64,000 bases of DNA from an uncultured Candidatus Saccharibacteria bacterium (lineage in GTDB: Bacteria; Patescibacteriota; Minisyncoccia; UBA6257; Colwellbacteraceae): NCBI GenBank assembly GCA_964643135.1, contig CAZXPC010000001.1, forward strand, positions 103,726 to 167,725, written 5' to 3'. Below, piece after piece: positions 3,690 through 47,640 of this stretch. The notes beneath the pieces were generated by a model. It saw only the letters and a list, made by a program, of their open reading frames with translations, was not told where the DNA came from and made no database searches. Positions within the stretch are counted from its first letter, which is position 1; the number at the start of each line of letters is the position of its first letter. The position numbers and the translations under genes were made by a program.

Positions 3690-4994
3690 ATGGTCAAAAA
3701 ACTTTTAAGAAAATTAACTCCCAAACGCGCGCTACTCTTCTACCATTATCTGAAAGCGGAGACGGCTTCGATTAAGCATGCCAATCCGTCGAAGGGAATG
3801 ATCGTAATCGGCGTCACGGGTACTAAGGGCAAGTCGTCGACGGCCAATTTTATCTGGGCCGGCCTCTCCGGCGCCGGAGTTAAAACAGGGCTCCAGAGCA
3901 CCGCTAACTTGAAGATTGGGACAGCCGAACTGGAAAATAGATATCATATGACTATGCCCAATCCTTTCGCAATTCAAGCTAATTTGAAGAGAATGGCCGC
4001 CGCCGGATGCAAAATTGCGATTGTTGAGACAACCTCCGAAGGAATCCTCCAATCCCGGCACAAGGGCATAAACTATGATATTTTAGTTTTCACCAACTTA
4101 ACTCCGGAGCACATCACTTCTCACGGCACATTTGAAAATTATAAAGCGACGAAACAAAGATTATTTAAAGAATTAAAAAAACAGCCCCATAAAACTCTGG
4201 CCGGTGTAGAAATCCCTAAAACAATCATTATCAACAGCGACTCGCCGCACGCCGATGACTTTCTTAAATTTCCGGCTGATCATAAGTTTACTTACGGGAT
4301 CAGCTCGAATGCCGATTTTAAAGCCGAAGATATCAGGGAAAATGAGCGAAATTTGAGTTTTGGAGTTTCAGGCAGAAGAGTCGAATTAAAAATTCCGGGA
4401 GTATTCAATGTTCTTAACGCTTTGCCGGTTTTCCCAATTTGTCGAATATTAGGCCTATCGGTTGAAGATGCGATTCGAGGCTTAGAAACCTTGACCGCAA
4501 TTCCCGGCCGAATGGAAACAATAATCGAAAAACCATTCCGGGTCATTGTCGACTACGCTCACGAAAAAGAAAGTATGACCGCGCTCATGGAAACAGCGCA
4601 GAAAATAAAAGGCGGCGGCAAGATCATTGTGCTTTTGGGCGCCGAAGGGGGAGGCCGGGATAAAACTAAGCGCCCGCTAATGGGTTCGATCGTCGGCCAA
4701 CAGGCTGATTATGTTGTCGTTTCAAATGTCGACCCGTATGAAGAGTCGCCGATGAATATTATTAATGATATCGCGGCAGCCGCCAAAGAAGAGGGCAAAA
4801 TTGAAAACCGGGATCTGTTCCTGATAGAGGACAGGCGGGCGGGAATAAAAAAATGTTTAGAATTGGCCGCGCCCGGCGATTTAGTGCTTATAACCGGCAA
4901 GGGCTCCGAACAATCGATGATCATCGGCAATCAAAGAATTGCTTGGGATGATCGAAGAGTAGTTAAAGAACTATTTGGTATAATTGAAAAATAG
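3690..4994 (+). CDS. Mur ligase family protein (MurE/MurT-like, central and C-terminal domains only)
   Basis: P-loop GVTGTKGKSST about 40 aa from the N-terminus, so no N-terminal UDP-binding Mur domain. Mur ligase C-terminal domain (DYAHEKESM ... LLGAEGGGRDKTKRP). Confidence 0.7.
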   Translation: MVKKLLRKLTPKRALLFYHYLKAETASIKHANPSKGMIVIGVTGTKGKSSTANFIWAGLSGAGVKTGLQSTANLKIGTAELENRYHMTMPNPFAIQANLKRMAAAGCKIAIVETTSEGILQSRHKGINYDILVFTNLTPEHITSHGTFENYKATKQRLFKELKKQPHKTLAGVEIPKTIIINSDSPHADDFLKFPADHKFTYGISSNADFKAEDIRENERNLSFGVSGRRVELKIPGVFNVLNALPVFPICRILGLSVEDAIRGLETLTAIPGRMETIIEKPFRVIVDYAHEKESMTALMETAQKIKGGGKIIVLLGAEGGGRDKTKRPLMGSIVGQQADYVVVSNVDPYEESPMNIINDIAAAAKEEGKIENRDLFLIEDRRAGIKKCLELAAPGDLVLITGKGSEQSMIIGNQRIAWDDRRVVKELFGIIEK

Positions 4995-5280
4995 CGTCAT
5001 GGAAATAAAAGAATTACTGCGAGAAGGGAAAGAAATTTGGACGGCCGAGAAGCGACTGACTTTAGCCGAAATTATTGTCAGAATGGGCAAAATTTACGGC
5101 GATATTTGCCGCTGGGAAAGGAATGCGTCCAAAGATTCATTGACCCACACCGACGAAGAGTTAAAGAAGGAATTAGGAAATATAATCTTCTCGACCGTCA
5201 GATGGTGCGATAATTTGGGTTATGATCCCGAGGATTGCATCGACCTCGCCATTGAATCTCAGAAGAAGTTTGTAAAGTAG
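4984..5280 (+). CDS. MazG-like nucleotide pyrophosphohydrolase (small single-domain form)
   Basis: 98 aa. EELKKELGNIIFSTVRWCDNLGYDPEDCIDLAIESQKKF matches the MazG/NTP-PPase helical fold signature (E-x2-E...D). 11-nt overlap with the Mur ligase gene. Confidence 0.6.
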   Translation: MKNSVMEIKELLREGKEIWTAEKRLTLAEIIVRMGKIYGDICRWERNASKDSLTHTDEELKKELGNIIFSTVRWCDNLGYDPEDCIDLAIESQKKFVK

Positions 5281-5303
5281 TTGGTTCGTGGTAAAATCGA
5301 AAT

Positions 5304-5450
5304 ATGAACGGAGAAGACTTCCTACATCAGATTCTAACCGAACTCCAAGCCCTAATTGACCCGGTGGTGGCAGTTATTAAGGGTTTATTCAACATAATGG
5401 CCCAAGTTTTCGTCTTTTTGGCAGACTTATTAAAGGGCATCCATTCATAA
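5304..5450 (+). CDS. Hypothetical 48-aa protein (MNGEDFLHQILTELQALIDPVVAVIKGLFNIMAQVFVFLADLLKGIHS), not in the ORF track
   Basis: Uninterrupted ATG...TAA ORF in an otherwise empty 300-nt gap. Preceded by extended -10 TGgTAAAAT (5289-5297) 6 nt before the ATG, the leaderless arrangement seen elsewhere in this window. Low coding certainty. Confidence 0.3.
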   Translation: MNGEDFLHQILTELQALIDPVVAVIKGLFNIMAQVFVFLADLLKGIHS

Positions 5451-5584
5451 TCATAAGAGGCGAGTAAGCGTATCGGAGTAACCATGCGTCGCATAAGATA
5501 CCTTTTCCGACGCATCCCGGCGACTCGCTAAGATTTGTTGACAAATCAATTCTCCTGTAATTAACTGTACCTGACGGTGGTTCG

Positions 5585-5815
5585 ATGGGATTGCACGAAA
5601 CGGAAGAAAAGCTCTTCATGGCCAGCATTCTGGTCTTGGTCGGAACGATCTGTGTGGCGCTGCTCTTCGGAGCTTTTGCCGTGGCGACTCAGTTCATTGC
5701 CCCTAAGCTCCTTGTAGCCCTGATCTTGGGGCTCGGCTTCAGCTGCTTCGGAGTTCTTCTGGGGGCTCTGTGGACCGTGAAAAAGAAACTTAAGGAGCTT
5801 CACGTCCGCGCCTAA
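5585..5815 (+). CDS. Small membrane protein, two predicted TM helices
   Basis: 76 aa with two hydrophobic stretches (ILVLVGTICVALLFGAFAV; LLVALILGLGFSCFGVLLGAL). No recognisable domain. Confidence 0.35.
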   Translation: MGLHETEEKLFMASILVLVGTICVALLFGAFAVATQFIAPKLLVALILGLGFSCFGVLLGALWTVKKKLKELHVRA

Positions 5816-5889
5816 CCTCGCTTGAGCATGTCCAACAAAGCGGACCTCTGCTCTATTTTTTTACCTAAATATATCTATAATTGGATCAA

Positions 5890-8293: not shown

Positions 8294-8392
8294 CGGAATC
8301 AGTATAAACAATATTGGGAATAAGGAAAGGAGTATCGGAATCCCGCAGAGAAGCCTAATAACTTCGTTTTTTATCGTTGCTCTTAGGCCTTC

Positions 8393-8427
8393 AATTCTAG
8401 GGATATTTGTGAGATAATGGACAGATG
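8393..8427 (+). promoter_or_regulatory. 35-bp element AATTCTAGGGATATTTGTGAGATAATGGACAG+ATG containing extended -10 (TGaGATAAT, 8410-8418) 6 nt before the ybaB-like start codon; copy 1 of 2
   Basis: Perfect 35/35 identity with the reverse complement of 18167-18201. Confidence 0.6.
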
Positions 8428-8673
8428 TTTGATAAATTAAAGAAGCTAAACGAGCTCCGGAACCTGCAGAGTGAAATCAAAAAACAAAGCGCCGAGGCCT
8501 CGAAAGACGGCGTGCGGGTTGTTATAGACGGCGGTCTCGACATCGTTGAGCTGACTCTGAATCCGGCACTCGATATCAAAGCTCAGGAACGGGCTGTGAT
8601 CGGTGCTTTCGCCGAGGCCAAGACTAAAATACAAGCCGTAATCGCAAAGAATTTCGCCGGCAGCTTATTTTAA
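8425..8673 (+). CDS. ybaB: YbaB/EbfC family nucleoid-associated DNA-binding protein
   Basis: 82 aa. MFDKLKKLNELRNLQSEIKK...GVRVVIDGGLDIVELTLNPAL pattern typical of YbaB/EbfC. Confidence 0.65.
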   Translation: MFDKLKKLNELRNLQSEIKKQSAEASKDGVRVVIDGGLDIVELTLNPALDIKAQERAVIGAFAEAKTKIQAVIAKNFAGSLF

Positions 8674-8677
8674 AACC

Positions 8678-9730: not shown

Positions 9731-9739
9731 ATAGCAAAA

Positions 9740-9765
9740 CACCCTCTGCAACGGAGGGTGTTTTT
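9740..9765. terminator. Bidirectional rho-independent terminator between convergent genes
   Basis: CACCCTC-tgcaacg-GAGGGTG followed by TTTTT on plus, and TTTTGCT on minus. Confidence 0.65.
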
Positions 9766-13071: not shown

Positions 13072-13489
13072 TGGTGTGGGTAATTCGTAAGCCGGATTCT
13101 GTAACCCAGCTTGTCCAATGGACAGGCTGGGCGGCAATAATTTATCTGGGACCTTGATTGCTCAAAGCCTCTAGCGATTCTCCAACCACTTGCGTGACTG
13201 GCGCGATCTTGCACCCGGTAAGGATTTGGAAACGTTTCACTTCAGCCTTTTAATCTCTATAGCTGAATTGGACCATCTAGCTTGAGAACTGGGTCCCGCT
13301 AATCTTTTCAGACCAGCGCGTCACTGTTCGCACCTCGCGCATTACTGCGTGCGGCCGTTAGCCGCTACCTTTTTATCCTGATTTGCACCAGGATGGTGTC
13401 CGGACTTTCCTCTCTTAAGTTGATCGGTATGAAGAACAGTCGTTGCTGAATAGTGATCATCTTTAGAGCTACTGCCAGAATTACCTGGG
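13072..13489 (-). ncRNA. rnpB: RNase P RNA (bacterial type A-like)
   Basis: Minus strand carries GAGAGGAAAGTCCGGAC (P4 5' strand, plus 13400-13410) and TTACAGAATCCGGCTTA (P4 3' strand, plus 13088-13102) about 300 nt apart. Internal segments resemble E. coli M1 RNA (GGTAGCGGCTAACGGCCGC; GCGAACAGTGACGCGC; CCCAGATAAATTATTGCC). Candidate P1 pairing CCCAGGTAATTC / GAATTACC. Ends approximate within about 15 nt. Confidence 0.85.
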
Positions 13490-44297: not shown

Positions 44298-45407
44298 TTG
44301 ATGTCACTCGCCATATACCGGAAATATCGGCCGCAGTCATTTGAGGATTTGATCGGCCAGGAAACGGCCGTTGAGGTGTTAAGAAATGCGGCAATTAAAG
44401 ATAAAATCAGCCATGCTTATTTGTTCTACGGCCCGCGGGGAACGGGCAAAACTACAGCCGCGCGCTTGCTTGCCAAAATCGCTAACTGCGAAACCCGCCG
44501 CGACGACCCCAAGTTCAAAGCTAAGGGCGAACCCTGCAACGAATGCCGGCCCTGCAAAGAAATCGAGGAAGGCCGCGCGCTCGACGTTGTTGAAATAGAC
44601 GCGGCTTCCAACCGCGGAATTGATGAAATTCGAAACATTAAAGAAGGCATTCGCCTCTCCCCCAGTTCTTATACTTATAAGGTCTATATTATCGACGAGG
44701 CTCATCAGCTAACCAAAGCCGCCGCTGACGCGCTTTTAAAAACCTTGGAAGAACCGCCGGCTCATGCGATCTTCATTCTCGCTACGACCGAATATGAAAA
44801 AATCCAGCCAACTATAACTTCACGAACTCAACGAATTCACTTTAAGCGCTTGGCCATTTCAAAAGTTGTTGAGAAACTAAAGAAAATAGCTGCCTCCGAA
44901 AAGAAAGTAAAAATTTCTGACGACGCGCTTGACCTCATCGCCGTTACTTCCGAAGGCAGTTTACGCGACGCCGAATCGTTATTAGACCAAGTGATCTCGC
45001 TTGGTGATAATCTAGAGCTCGAAAGAATCGAAAATATTTTAGGCAAAGTTGGCTTTGTCCGCACTTCTTCGCTTGTTAGCCGCCTTATTGCCAATGACAT
45101 CGCCGGCTCGCTCGAATATCTGGCCGAGATTCAAGAGGCCGGGTTTAATATTATCGACCTAACCAAAGACGTCATCCACTATCTCCGCCGAGTACTGGCG
45201 CTAAAGTTTGATCCAAAATTAGAAGAGATATTTAAAACCGAGCTGACCGAGAATGAAATTAAAGAATTAAAAAATCACGCCAAGCAAGCTGACGGCGATA
45301 AAACTATTGCACTCTTAAAAAATCTTATTCGCGCCTACAGCGAAATGCGCTACTCGCCTTTTGCCATCGTGCCGTTAGAGGTCGCGATTATAGAATCCCT
45401 AAAATAA
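44298..45407 (+). CDS. dnaX: DNA polymerase III subunit gamma/tau (short form)
   Basis: YRPQSFEDLIGQE, GPRGTGKTT Walker A, zinc module CNECRPC, DEAHQLT, SRTQRIHF sensor-2. Confidence 0.9.
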   Translation: MMSLAIYRKYRPQSFEDLIGQETAVEVLRNAAIKDKISHAYLFYGPRGTGKTTAARLLAKIANCETRRDDPKFKAKGEPCNECRPCKEIEEGRALDVVEIDAASNRGIDEIRNIKEGIRLSPSSYTYKVYIIDEAHQLTKAAADALLKTLEEPPAHAIFILATTEYEKIQPTITSRTQRIHFKRLAISKVVEKLKKIAASEKKVKISDDALDLIAVTSEGSLRDAESLLDQVISLGDNLELERIENILGKVGFVRTSSLVSRLIANDIAGSLEYLAEIQEAGFNIIDLTKDVIHYLRRVLALKFDPKLEEIFKTELTENEIKELKNHAKQADGDKTIALLKNLIRAYSEMRYSPFAIVPLEVAIIESLK

Positions 45408-45540: not shown

Positions 45541-45571
45541 AAAAAGAAAGACGATCCCCGGAGGAATCGTC
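45541..45571 (-). terminator. Rho-independent terminator immediately downstream of the tRNA-like gene (minus strand)
   Basis: GACGAUUCCUCCGGGGAUCGUC hairpin followed by UUUCUUUUUU on the minus strand. Confidence 0.6.
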
Positions 45572-45576
45572 GTGAA

Positions 45577-45650
45577 TGCGGGTGTCTGGATTTGAACCAA
45601 AGAGCTACTCACTGCTAGAGAGACGCTCTAACCAACTGAGCTACACCCGC
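45577..45650 (-). tRNA. tRNA-like gene with canonical acceptor, D and T arms but non-pairing anticodon stem (isotype undetermined; possible pseudo-tRNA or unusual tRNA)
   Basis: GCGGGTG / CACCCGC acceptor. D-arm GCTC-AGTTGGTTA-GAGC and T-arm TTTGG-TTCAAAT-CCAGA resemble tRNA-Ile/Ala. Anticodon arm TCTCT-CTAGCAG-TGAGT has U:U at both stem ends and would give anticodon AGC. No CCA encoded. Confidence 0.45.
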
Positions 45651-46136
45651 GTTATGTGATGGCTGGTTACCCGGCCATCGATGATTAGAGGGCCCGCGGA
45701 CGGAAACTGGATGGGGCGGCGAGGCCCGCGGTGCCCAGAAGGTACTCATCCCGACAGCTCTTGCGAACCACCAAGGAAGGTTTTTATAATAATCCCACCT
45801 TTATTCTGTGTCAACATCAAAAAAAGACAACTCCACGCCAGGAGTTGTATGAAATGTTGGCCTCGGCTGGTGTTACCCAATTATCGAAGAGAACGATGCG
45901 CGCGTGTTCTCTTAGTGTCGCTTTACCTTGCTACCGCTCCAGTTACCCGGATTGGGACAAAGCGAGGAACCTACATCCCAAGGACGGCCGCATACTGCTC
46001 TTTGCGAAAGAGTGGTCCCCACACAAGCTCTGGCGAGAACCGCGCGGTGATCCTTGGGGTATCCGATATTGACCGAGGCCGGAAGGAACGACTACTGACT
46101 TGCTTCTATTTTTAGTATATCATATCGGCACAAACC

Positions 46137-46766
46137 ATGGACATAATTAAGAAACTCAGTTGGCGTTACGCGGTGCAGAAATTTGATCCGACTAAAAAAG
46201 TCTCGGACAAAGATTTTGATGTCTTGATTGAAGCTCTGCGCCTCTCGCCTTCTTCATTCGGCCTACAGCCGTGGAAATTTGTGGTCGTGAAAGATCCGGC
46301 TATCCGGCAGAAACTTCATGAGGCCGCCTACAATCAGTCGAAGGTGATCGACGCTTCGCACTTTATTGTTCTCTGTTCCATGGAAAATATCACGCCCGAG
46401 CTGGCCGACCGATACGTTGAATCGGTCGCTAAGGCTCGCAATGTGTCTATGGAGTCTCTCGCCGCGCTCTTAAAGAGCCGCCGCGGGTTCATAGAAGGGT
46501 CAACTAAAGAAGAACTGTCTACATGGGCCTCAAACCAAGTTTTTATCGCCTTGGGAGTGCTTTTAACCACGGCAGCGGCCATGAATATCGATGCCGGACC
46601 AATGGGCGGCTTTGATGACGAAAAATTTGATGAAATATTGGGCTTGAAAGAACTTGGCCTAAAATCCCGCGTTGCTTGCGCCATCGGCTACCGCGCGGCC
46701 GACGATCATGCGGCCAACCACCCAAAAGCCCGCTTTGATAAGCCAGAAGTTGTAATCGAAATCTAA
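46137..46766 (+). CDS. Nitroreductase-family NAD(P)H flavin oxidoreductase
   Basis: KKLSWRYAVQKFDP...LRLSPSSFGLQPWKFVVV, nitroreductase fold signature. 209 aa. Confidence 0.75.
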   Translation: MDIIKKLSWRYAVQKFDPTKKVSDKDFDVLIEALRLSPSSFGLQPWKFVVVKDPAIRQKLHEAAYNQSKVIDASHFIVLCSMENITPELADRYVESVAKARNVSMESLAALLKSRRGFIEGSTKEELSTWASNQVFIALGVLLTTAAAMNIDAGPMGGFDDEKFDEILGLKELGLKSRVACAIGYRAADDHAANHPKARFDKPEVVIEI

Positions 46767-46816: not shown

Positions 46817-47515
46817 ATGAAAAACGGTGCATACGATCAAAGTATTCGAGAAAGAGCCATTTTCCTAAGAAAGAACGGTTATACATATTCTGAAATTCTC
46901 CAGCGAATACCAATTGTTAAATCAACTCTATCTCTGTGGTTAAAAAATGTTGGCTTAAGTAAAAGCCAAAACCAAAGATTAACTAAAAAGAAACTTGAGG
47001 CGGCCAAACGCGGAGGATTAGCGCGTAGAAATCAACGCATAGAATTAACCAAGAGGATTCATCAAGAAGCACAAAAAGATATTGGAAAAATCACTCAGCG
47101 CGAATTATGGCTTATTGGAGTAATGCTCTATTGGGCCGAAGGGTCCAAAGAAAAAGAATACCGTCCTGGTTCTGGAGCAAACTTCACCAATTCCGATCCT
47201 AGAATGATTAAGATATTCTTAAAATGGCTGACTGAAATATGCATGATCGGGAAAGATCGAATATTTCTAGATATCTATATCCACATTGACAGGAGAAGTA
47301 AGTTAGAAAAAGTAATAGAATATTGGGCCGAAACCACAGGCTTCCCGAAAGATCACTTTACCAGAATCTATTTTAAAAAGGGCAACCGAAATACTAAAAG
47401 GAAGAATATCGGCAAAGTTTATTTCGGAGTTCTGAGAATCAATGTTAGAGCAAGTTCCTCATTAAATCGCAAAATTGCAGGCTGGACCGAGGGTGTGGTA
47501 AAGTATCTGTCGTAA
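46817..47515 (+). CDS. HTH-domain DNA-binding protein with possible LAGLIDADG-like endonuclease-type C-terminal domain (AT-rich island)
   Basis: N-terminal HTH (RERAIFLRKNGYTYSEILQRIPIVKSTLSLWLKNVG). LWLIGVMLYWAEGSKE resembles a degenerate LAGLIDADG block. About 35% GC versus about 50% surroundings. Stop codon abuts the tRNA-Gln 5' end. Confidence 0.3.
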   Translation: MKNGAYDQSIRERAIFLRKNGYTYSEILQRIPIVKSTLSLWLKNVGLSKSQNQRLTKKKLEAAKRGGLARRNQRIELTKRIHQEAQKDIGKITQRELWLIGVMLYWAEGSKEKEYRPGSGANFTNSDPRMIKIFLKWLTEICMIGKDRIFLDIYIHIDRRSKLEKVIEYWAETTGFPKDHFTRIYFKKGNRNTKRKNIGKVYFGVLRINVRASSSLNRKIAGWTEGVVKYLS

Positions 47516-47590
47516 TTGCGGGGTGGTGCAATGGTAGTCACGCCGGACTTTGAATCCGGAAATTCTGGTTCGAGCCCAGACCCCGCAGCC
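47516..47590 (+). tRNA. tRNA-Gln (anticodon UUG), CCA encoded
   Basis: U1:A72 acceptor (TGCGGGG / CCCCGCA), 3-bp D-stem, anticodon arm CCGGA-CTTTGAA-TCCGG, T-arm TCTGG-TTCGAGC-CCAGA, discriminator G, CCA. Confidence 0.85.
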
Positions 47591-47640
47591 AACACGTGCT
47601 AGCTCTTGTGTCAAGACGAGCTCGAGCGCACGAGATATCC

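Follow-up and report, generated by a model that had tools for sequence, protein, structure and literature searches.

A lineage-specific noncoding insert downstream of dnaX in an uncultured Colwellbacteria-like bacterium and its two putative RNA genes

In Escherichia coli, the small RNA 3'ETS-leuZ is released from the spacer of a transfer RNA (tRNA) precursor, and tRNA pseudogenes and integration scars are found at the borders of genomic islands. Non-canonical bacterial tRNAs that mistranslate form the tRNA-ProX family, one example being tRNA-ProA with the anticodon AGC, and its marks are C1:G72, A33, A34, A15:A48, G21 and a neighboring ProRSx gene (PMC10404621). RNase P RNAs of the bacterial Candidate Phyla Radiation (CPR) are reported to be so diverged that they score below the Rfam cut-offs (PMC8172020). 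Here, we compare with these systems a 730-nucleotide (nt) noncoding gap between dnaX and a nitroreductase gene in an uncultured Candidatus Colwellbacteria-like CPR bacterium, using a 64,000-nt stretch of contig CAZXPC010000001.1 (assembly GCA_964643135.1) hereafter called the window. On balance, we favor the reading that this gap is a lineage-specific noncoding insert with two separate RNA genes on the minus strand, that is, a folded orphan RNA (unit 1) and a non-canonical tRNA preceded by a long leader (unit 2).

Anatomy of the insert

The gap is flanked by dnaX (44301-45407, plus strand), which was identified by Pfam DNA_pol3_delta2 and related domains, and by the nitroreductase gene (46137-46766, plus strand), which was also identified by Pfam. 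According to a crude count, about 94% of the window lies in long open reading frames (ORFs). By the same kind of count, two further stretches of the window, 5281-5880 (600 nt) and 8312-8677 (366 nt), are without an ORF of at least 90 amino acids (aa).

An initial annotation of this gap had found no credible ORF in it, and our searches strengthen that view. Two plus-strand ORFs do exist (45681-46115 and 45731-46072), but Pfam has no match for either of them or for any frame, out of six, in 45651-46136. The 144-aa ORF product matches only itself among 5.8 billion clustered proteins and, in an exhaustive HMMER read, among 1.84 billion representatives. Moreover, no similarity was found to the proteins encoded at the same site in relatives. 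A six-frame chimeric protein query, in which the frames were joined by runs of X, was not counted since it missed an identical ORF (P0121) present in the database, and negatives from such queries are therefore untrustworthy.

The minus strand of the gap contains the following features, given in the direction of the putative transcripts.

46114-46122, minus strand: extended -10-like element TGATATACT, candidate promoter of unit 1 read from its motif
45859-46080, minus strand: core of unit 1, predicted multi-branched fold
45820-45848, minus strand: intrinsic terminator of unit 1, ACAACUCC-UGGCGU-GGAGUUGU followed by CUUUUUU (8 pairs, 4 of them G-C)
45786-45814, minus strand: sigma-70-type promoter TTGACA-17-TATTAT, 11/12 match to the consensus, six bases past the terminator of unit 1
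45651-45779, minus strand: 5' leader of the tRNA, 129 nt, fraction of guanine plus cytosine (GC) 0.62
45577-45650, minus strand: non-canonical tRNA gene, called tRNA-Ala(AGC) by ARAGORN and matching the Rfam tRNA model with 56.6 bits
45540-45571, minus strand: intrinsic terminator of unit 2, GACGAUUCC-UCCG-GGGAUCGUC followed by UUUCUUUUUU (9 pairs, 5 of them G-C)

We read these features as two genes, not one, because an intrinsic terminator and a near-consensus promoter separate the GC-rich RNA from the tRNA. In the initial annotation, a long RNA ran straight into the tRNA-like gene as part of a single unit with one promoter and one terminator. This picture is not supported, since the first terminator (stem 45848-45827, U-run to 45820) and the TTGACA-17-TATTAT promoter (45814-45786) intervene and cut the segment in two. 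The terminator proposed to follow the tRNA was found, with a stem at 45571-45550 and a T-run. As for the GC content that had been described as clearly raised, it is above the window mean of 0.47 (standard deviation 0.05, 220-nt windows) but only moderately so, with 0.55-0.56 in the core of unit 1 and 0.62 in the tRNA leader, and the spacer that holds the unit 1 terminator and the unit 2 promoter has a GC of 0.28. This anatomy is observed directly, as are the lack of a coding signal, the fact that relatives do not have the insert, and the lack of a match to a known family other than tRNA.

Unit 1 extends on the minus strand from about 46107 to 45820, which would correspond to an RNA of roughly 260-285 nt. 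Its core is predicted to be closed by a helix of nine base pairs (bp), GGCCUCGGU/GCCGAGGCC, pairing 46080-46072 with 45867-45859. Inside are predicted a second 9-bp helix (CCCAAGGAU/GUCCUUGGG), a CUCUUU-CGC-AAAGAG hairpin, a hairpin with a GUAA tetraloop (45951-45938), and an AGAGAAC/GUUCUCU hairpin. The fold of 45820-46108 has a minimum free energy (MFE) of -104.5 kcal/mol, with a z-score of -3.06 against dinucleotide shuffles, and the core alone has an MFE of -89.9 where shuffles give -73.2 +/- 4.9. As a background, 160 windows of 289 nt taken across the 64 kb have a mean z-score of -0.23 (standard deviation 1.05), and 1.9% of them reach -3 or lower, namely three, one of which is unit 2 and the other two both strands of a terminator near 9740. 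The fold signal of units 1 and 2 is thus real but not overwhelming. The terminator in this background, which has its lowest fold z-scores, is a bidirectional intrinsic terminator (AAAACACCCUCUGCAACGGAGGGUGUUUUU, 9735-9765) located between convergent genes.

As for the start of unit 1, the extended -10 proposed by the initial annotation is present, but it lies at 46122-46114, two nucleotides from where it had been placed, has no -35, and overlaps the -10 of the nitroreductase gene (TATCAT, 46118-46123, plus strand) as a mirror image. A consensus scan finds the plus-strand promoter match that contains this nitroreductase -10 (46095-46123), and the absence of TGATATACT from the list of that scan is explained by its missing -35. 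Transcription of unit 1 would start from the extended -10 near 46107 and end at its own terminator (45848-45820), which can act on the minus strand only since on the plus strand the A-rich run precedes the hairpin. Because the unit 1 promoter overlaps the nitroreductase -10, the two divergent promoters would share bases, and firing of one could exclude the other.

Unit 1 is also an orphan. No homologues were found in phage, plasmid or viral-contig collections or in the 290 loci that we fetched. The viral-contig search consisted of five k-mer scans, whose matches were chance seeds only, while blastn matches in the phage and plasmid collections are confined to the tRNA part of the insert. Unit 1 would most likely be a stand-alone small RNA.

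Unit 2 would start at about 45779, downstream of its near-consensus promoter, and comprise the 129-nt GC-rich leader, the tRNA and the terminator at 45571-45540. Only three promoters matching the consensus in at least 11 of 12 positions occur in the window, one being that of unit 2 and another preceding the RNase P RNA gene, but mononucleotide shuffles average 1.5 such sites, so that the count of three is not significant in itself. The third (TTGACA-18-TATAAT, 12/12) is at 62170-62141 on the minus strand. The leader is predicted to form hairpin A (45777-45749), hairpin B (45736-45690) with a 22-nt C-rich loop, CUCGCCGCCCCAUCCAGUUUCC, at 45723-45702, a single-stranded UCUAAUCAUC, and a GNRA hairpin C (GAUGGCCGG-GUAA-CCAGCCAUC, 45679-45658) that ends 7 nt before the tRNA. 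Together, leader, tRNA and terminator (45545-45780) fold with a z-score of -3.69 against dinucleotide shuffles.

RNase P would be expected to cut unit 2 at G1 of the tRNA (45650), which would free the leader and a tRNA-shaped RNA, and the freed leader would display a hairpin with the exposed 22-nt C-rich loop. Such a structured 129-nt leader with an exposed C-rich loop, if freed by RNase P, would be reminiscent of spacer-derived small RNAs like 3'ETS-leuZ. However, in contrast to these RNAs, the element is here a 5' leader, far longer than usual.

The non-canonical tRNA

The initial annotation described a tRNA-like gene in which the anticodon arm is abnormal and the other arms are canonical, and our analysis supports this. 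The gene scores 56.6 bits with the Rfam tRNA model RF00005, for which the gathering score is 29, and ARAGORN likewise calls a tRNA. With an acceptor stem of seven pairs out of seven, a D stem of four out of four and a T stem of five out of five, the 16 pairs of these three stems are without exception standard or G·U. The bases involved in tertiary contacts are kept as well (U8, A14, G18G19, the T-loop UUCAAAU, which conforms to UUCRANY, and G15:C48), so this part of the molecule has the stems and tertiary bases of a canonical tRNA. CCA is not encoded in the gene.

The anticodon arm, by contrast, lacks the canonical 5-bp stem and open 7-nt loop. It reads UCUCU-CUAGCAG-UGAGU, in which the Rfam alignment marks the pairs U27·U43 and U31·U39 as non-standard, and C32 and G38 could pair with each other, which would leave a loop of 5 nt.

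Nor do the identity signals agree with the anticodon, which would decode alanine codons. The alanine identity element is a G3:U70 wobble in the acceptor stem, but the acceptor here is GCGGGUG/CACCCGC, with G:C at 3:70, and the label tRNA-Ala given by ARAGORN follows from the anticodon AGC and nothing else. The first base of this anticodon is A34, which bacteria usually have in tRNA-Arg(ACG) and rarely in other tRNAs. Arginine identity depends on A20 in the D-loop and on C35 in the anticodon, whereas this tRNA has U20 in its D-loop (AGUUGGUUA) and G35 in its anticodon. The best sequence matches, a plasmid tRNA-Ile(GAU) with 82.5% identity over 57 nt and a tRNA-Arg(ACG) with 75% over 56 nt, are not decisive as to its origin.

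A described parallel is the tRNA-ProX family, with which our tRNA shares a disagreement between anticodon and identity (AGC in the absence of G3:U70). However, A34 is the sole mark in common, since the tRNA has G1:C72, U33, G15:C48 and A21, with no prolyl-tRNA synthetase gene nearby, and its mismatched anticodon stem is not a feature of that family. We therefore do not assign it to tRNA-ProX. Judged by sequence, this tRNA has an intact body, but no amino acid is a clean fit to its anticodon arm and identity signals, which would make it either a paralogue outside normal decoding or a young pseudogene.

Comparison with known RNA families

We searched Rfam 15 in three ways: at the gathering score with the whole window, at E<=10 with 851 nt, and, for the 311 nt of unit 1, under the most permissive filters at the same E-value limit. 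On both strands of the segment, tRNA is the only match, and unit 1 has none at the gathering score or at E<=10. How such silence should be interpreted can be gauged from the RNase P RNA of this genome. Its class A gene (13073-13487, minus strand), spotted by GAGGAAAGUCCGG and ACAGAAUCCGGCUUA while we were listing strong promoters, has a perfect TTGACA-16-TATAAT promoter (13521-13494), and its alignment shows a long insertion in the P3 region. With 96.3 bits against a gathering score of 100, it falls just short of a match. In this group, the lack of a match at the gathering score is therefore weak evidence, since a true RNase P RNA is missed that way, but the silence of Rfam for unit 1 carries some weight because the E-value mode does recover this diverged RNA.

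Unit 1 resembles class A RNase P RNA in its size class, and a strong promoter likewise precedes the RNase P RNA gene. However, unit 1 has no match to these models at E<=10, no similarity to the gene at 13073-13487, and no GAGGAAAGUCC and ACAGAAnnnGGCUUA where the P4 strands should be. Since the E-value search locates the real gene elsewhere, unit 1 is not RNase P RNA.

The initial annotation had fitted none of the families that it considered, and the Rfam search, which includes the models for signal recognition particle (SRP) RNA, GOLLD, ROOL, raiA and OLE, is equally silent. SRP RNA, 6S RNA, 5S ribosomal RNA and transfer-messenger RNA (tmRNA) have no match at E<=10 on either strand, and ARAGORN finds no tmRNA. 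GOLLD, ROOL, raiA, OLE, HEARO, and the cobalamin, TPP, FMN and other riboswitches are without a match at E<=10, as are group I and group II introns in Rfam. Domain V of group II introns is a 34-nt hairpin with a 9-bp lower helix that begins with GAGC, a bulge of 2 nt, an upper helix and a GNRA loop. The resemblance to it is limited to GAGCAGUAU, which can pair with GGUUC over 4 bp only, and the 17 nt in between form no hairpin. The stretch said to recall helix 8 of SRP RNA (GGCCGGAAGGAAC) is present, one nucleotide from where it had been placed, at 46077-46089, but it is on the plus strand and has no pairing partner before the start of the nitroreductase gene.

The suggestion that the segment might belong to the large structured RNAs found next to tRNAs has likewise gained no supporting evidence. 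Like GOLLD, ROOL, HEARO, OLE and raiA RNAs, unit 1 is richer in GC than its surroundings, folds well and adjoins a tRNA gene. In contrast to them, its length is only about 260-285 nt, a terminator and a promoter lie between it and the tRNA, and it has no Rfam match. Variable regions are known to contain orphan small-RNA candidates and off-standard tRNA paralogues, and what we show here does not go beyond such elements.

A variable site and the explanations weighed

The insert lies in a place that differs between close relatives. These relatives (loci L083, L088, L171 and others) were obtained by exact look-ups of DnaX relatives, while dnaX-based scans gave mostly distant bacteria. DnaX homologues place the bacterium among Candidatus Colwellbacteria, within the Patescibacteria. 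Identical copies of the locus come from two sequencing runs of the same samples (L081 and L082; SRR8931233 and SRR8931234). Upstream of dnaX, the order of genes is constant in all fetched relatives, with a peptidase S11 gene, scpB, scpA and a DUF4015 gene. Downstream, there is no such constancy. In L171, whose DnaX is 80% identical, only 2 nt separate the stop codon of dnaX from the nitroreductase ATG, and the 730 nt are absent. In L083, with an 89% identical DnaX, the same site holds a different insert of 1091 nt, in which a tRNA-like gene with a promoter, a leader of ~115 nt and a terminator is accompanied by an HD-domain-like ORF. This insert has no counterpart of unit 1, and the L083 nitroreductase gene has about 70 nt upstream instead of the long gap seen in the window. 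Because one relative lacks the insert and another has a different one, we consider the spot downstream of dnaX to be a variable insertion site. Consistently, L088 (DnaX 73% identical), L172, L173, L286, L287 and L289 each have different genes after dnaX, and in the window, L088 and L286 a tRNA-Gln(UUG) is found again and again 1-3 kb past dnaX.

Two of these relatives have noteworthy contents of their own. At 4908-4984 on its minus strand, L083 has the tRNA-like gene, which occurs in identical form in L084 and L085 and in which the acceptor, D and T arms are intact. Its anticodon loop has 8 nt (UAACCAAU), from which ARAGORN reads acca as a four-base anticodon, and the D and anticodon stems are spaced by extra bases. 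The Rfam tRNA model does not match it at E<=1, and its A1:U72 together with CCA in the loop recalls tRNA-Trp. Homology between this cassette and the leader and tRNA of the window was considered, since the two share CUAAUYAUC, a promoter and a terminator, but alignments give z-scores below 1 against shuffles. Because of these shuffle-level scores, and because a 9-mer with one mismatch is expected by chance, we do not claim it. In L088, a rod-shaped orphan RNA candidate of roughly 150-180 nt (4772-4950, minus strand; z-score -3.6) comes with a TTGACA promoter and a terminator of its own, and a C/U-rich bulge with CCUCC protrudes on one side. Next to this candidate, at 5000-5201, the 3' end of tRNA-Gln is duplicated (taccccggcaac occurs twice), like an integration scar, and tRNA-Gln itself is present too. 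Alignments detect no significant similarity among the noncoding pieces of the window and its relatives.

Near the window's own tRNA-Gln (47517-47591), a 232-aa ORF (46817-47515, plus strand; GC 0.38) ends 1 nt before the tRNA. It shows a weak N-terminal helix-turn-helix match (Pfam HTH_23; IS3 transposase N terminus, 20 bits), has no relatives among the fetched loci, and could be part of a mobile element. An assignment as a homing endonuclease finds no support in Pfam, NCBIfam, PHROGs or the sequences of solved structures.

In four independent short assemblies of relatives (L086, L087, L089 and L090), the contigs break about 40-50 nt past the dnaX stop, which suggests strain-level variation or repeats at the site.

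Several observations weigh against the two-gene reading. The promoter of unit 1 is without a -35 and could be a mere mirror image of the nitroreductase -10. The folding energy shows no strand preference, since the plus strand gives a z-score of -2.5 (-3.3 with 30 shuffles) and G·U pairs number 12 on the minus and 11 on the plus strand. Homologues of unit 1 and of the leader were not found in the collections searched, and there is thus no support from covariation or conservation. Finally, the excess of mismatches in the anticodon stem of the tRNA (2 of 5 pairs, against 0 of 16 in the other stems) is marginal, at about p = 0.05. The assignment to the minus strand is nevertheless made because both terminators work on that strand only. 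Transcription, processing and any function of the two units are inferences.

The most serious alternative, which we regard as possible but less likely, is that the insert is a decaying remnant in a recombination hot spot between dnaX and tRNA-Gln, the tRNA being a pseudogene, unit 1 spacer DNA, and the signals left over or due to chance. It would account for the lack of relatives even in the sister lineage with an 89% identical DnaX, for site content that differs in every sampled lineage, for the duplicated tRNA-Gln 3' end at the same site in L088, which is typical of integration scars, for the still more degenerate tRNA-like gene of L083, and for the several short contigs that stop about 40 nt past dnaX and suggest strain variation. 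On the other hand, some 94% of the window is in long ORFs, and DNA of no use tends to disappear from small genomes; the tRNA retains every base of its tertiary contacts and all 16 pairs of its acceptor, D and T stems; two clean terminators and an 11/12 promoter are correctly placed; and both units fold in the lowest 2% of the z-score distribution of the genome. The comparison with tRNA pseudogenes and integration scars at island borders is similarly divided. The tRNA does lie in a segment that varies among close relatives, near a recurring tRNA-Gln, but it is full length, its non-anticodon stems are intact, and it has its own promoter and terminator, while the window is without an integrase. 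The initial proposal of an integration remnant is consistent with the absence of the insert from L171, but integration into this particular tRNA finds no support, for neither an att-like repeat of a duplicated tRNA end nor a second copy of the tRNA-Gln 3' end is found within the window.

At the other extreme, the site could be a cradle of working RNAs that do not decode, with unit 1 as a new structured RNA class and the tRNA-shaped RNAs of the window and of L083 kept for another job. They might mistranslate deliberately, stand in as decoys or replacements where toxins cut tRNAs, or give RNase P a handle through which the C-rich leader is set free as a regulator. The positive support for this reading lies in the anatomy, and we consider it improbable.

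A single structured RNA of about 450 nt, running from the extended -10 through the end of the tRNA-like gene and the last terminator, with the internal hairpin as part of its fold, is very unlikely. The whole 455 nt does fold with a z-score of -3.38 on the minus strand, and read-through of the internal terminator is possible in principle, but a hairpin and a U-run followed by a promoter in a spacer with a GC of 0.28 are the signature of a gene boundary. Moreover, the two parts fold separately and independently of each other, and L083 has a leader and tRNA-like part with no unit 1 counterpart.

We give little credence to the complement of unit 1 as a structured, riboswitch-like 5' untranslated region of the nitroreductase mRNA, transcribed on the plus strand from a site at 45761-45790. 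That site (TTGCGA-18-TATAAT) matches the consensus in 10 of 12 positions, and the plus strand folds nearly as well as the minus strand (z-score -2.5). However, neither strand matches a riboswitch or leader family, no plus-strand terminator or attenuator is predicted, the hairpin with its U-run is functional on the minus strand only, and upstream of the orthologous nitroreductase genes there are instead 2 nt in L171 and about 70 nt in L083.

Hardly credible is a strongly diverged housekeeping RNA, such as SRP or 6S RNA, that the Rfam models would have missed; while CPR RNase P RNAs do score below the cut-offs (PMC8172020), as does the one in this genome at 96.3 bits against 100, and SRP RNA adjoins dnaX in some bacteria (L009), that RNase P RNA still reaches 96 bits where unit 1, even under the most permissive filters, gives nothing at E<=10, its fold is predicted to be multi-branched instead of the rod shape of SRP or 6S RNA, and a traceless loss from the same place in close relatives is not expected. 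Equally implausible is a decayed protein-coding gene, for which the two long plus-strand ORFs speak, one of them annotated as a gene in a public assembly, but against which stand six frames with no Pfam match, a 144-aa product that finds only itself in two very large protein collections, and no likeness to the proteins found at this site in relatives; the absence of family similarity in any frame leads us to reject a coding gene and a pseudogene alike.

If the two units are not expressed, the locus is simply an example of integration debris as seen in such genomes. If they are, 730 nt of the very small genome of this uncultured bacterium would be invested in two private RNAs. One of these, tRNA-shaped but with an anticodon at odds with its identity signals, would be another case for the short list of bacterial tRNAs outside standard decoding, and the interval between dnaX and tRNA-Gln would be a place where new RNA genes emerge.

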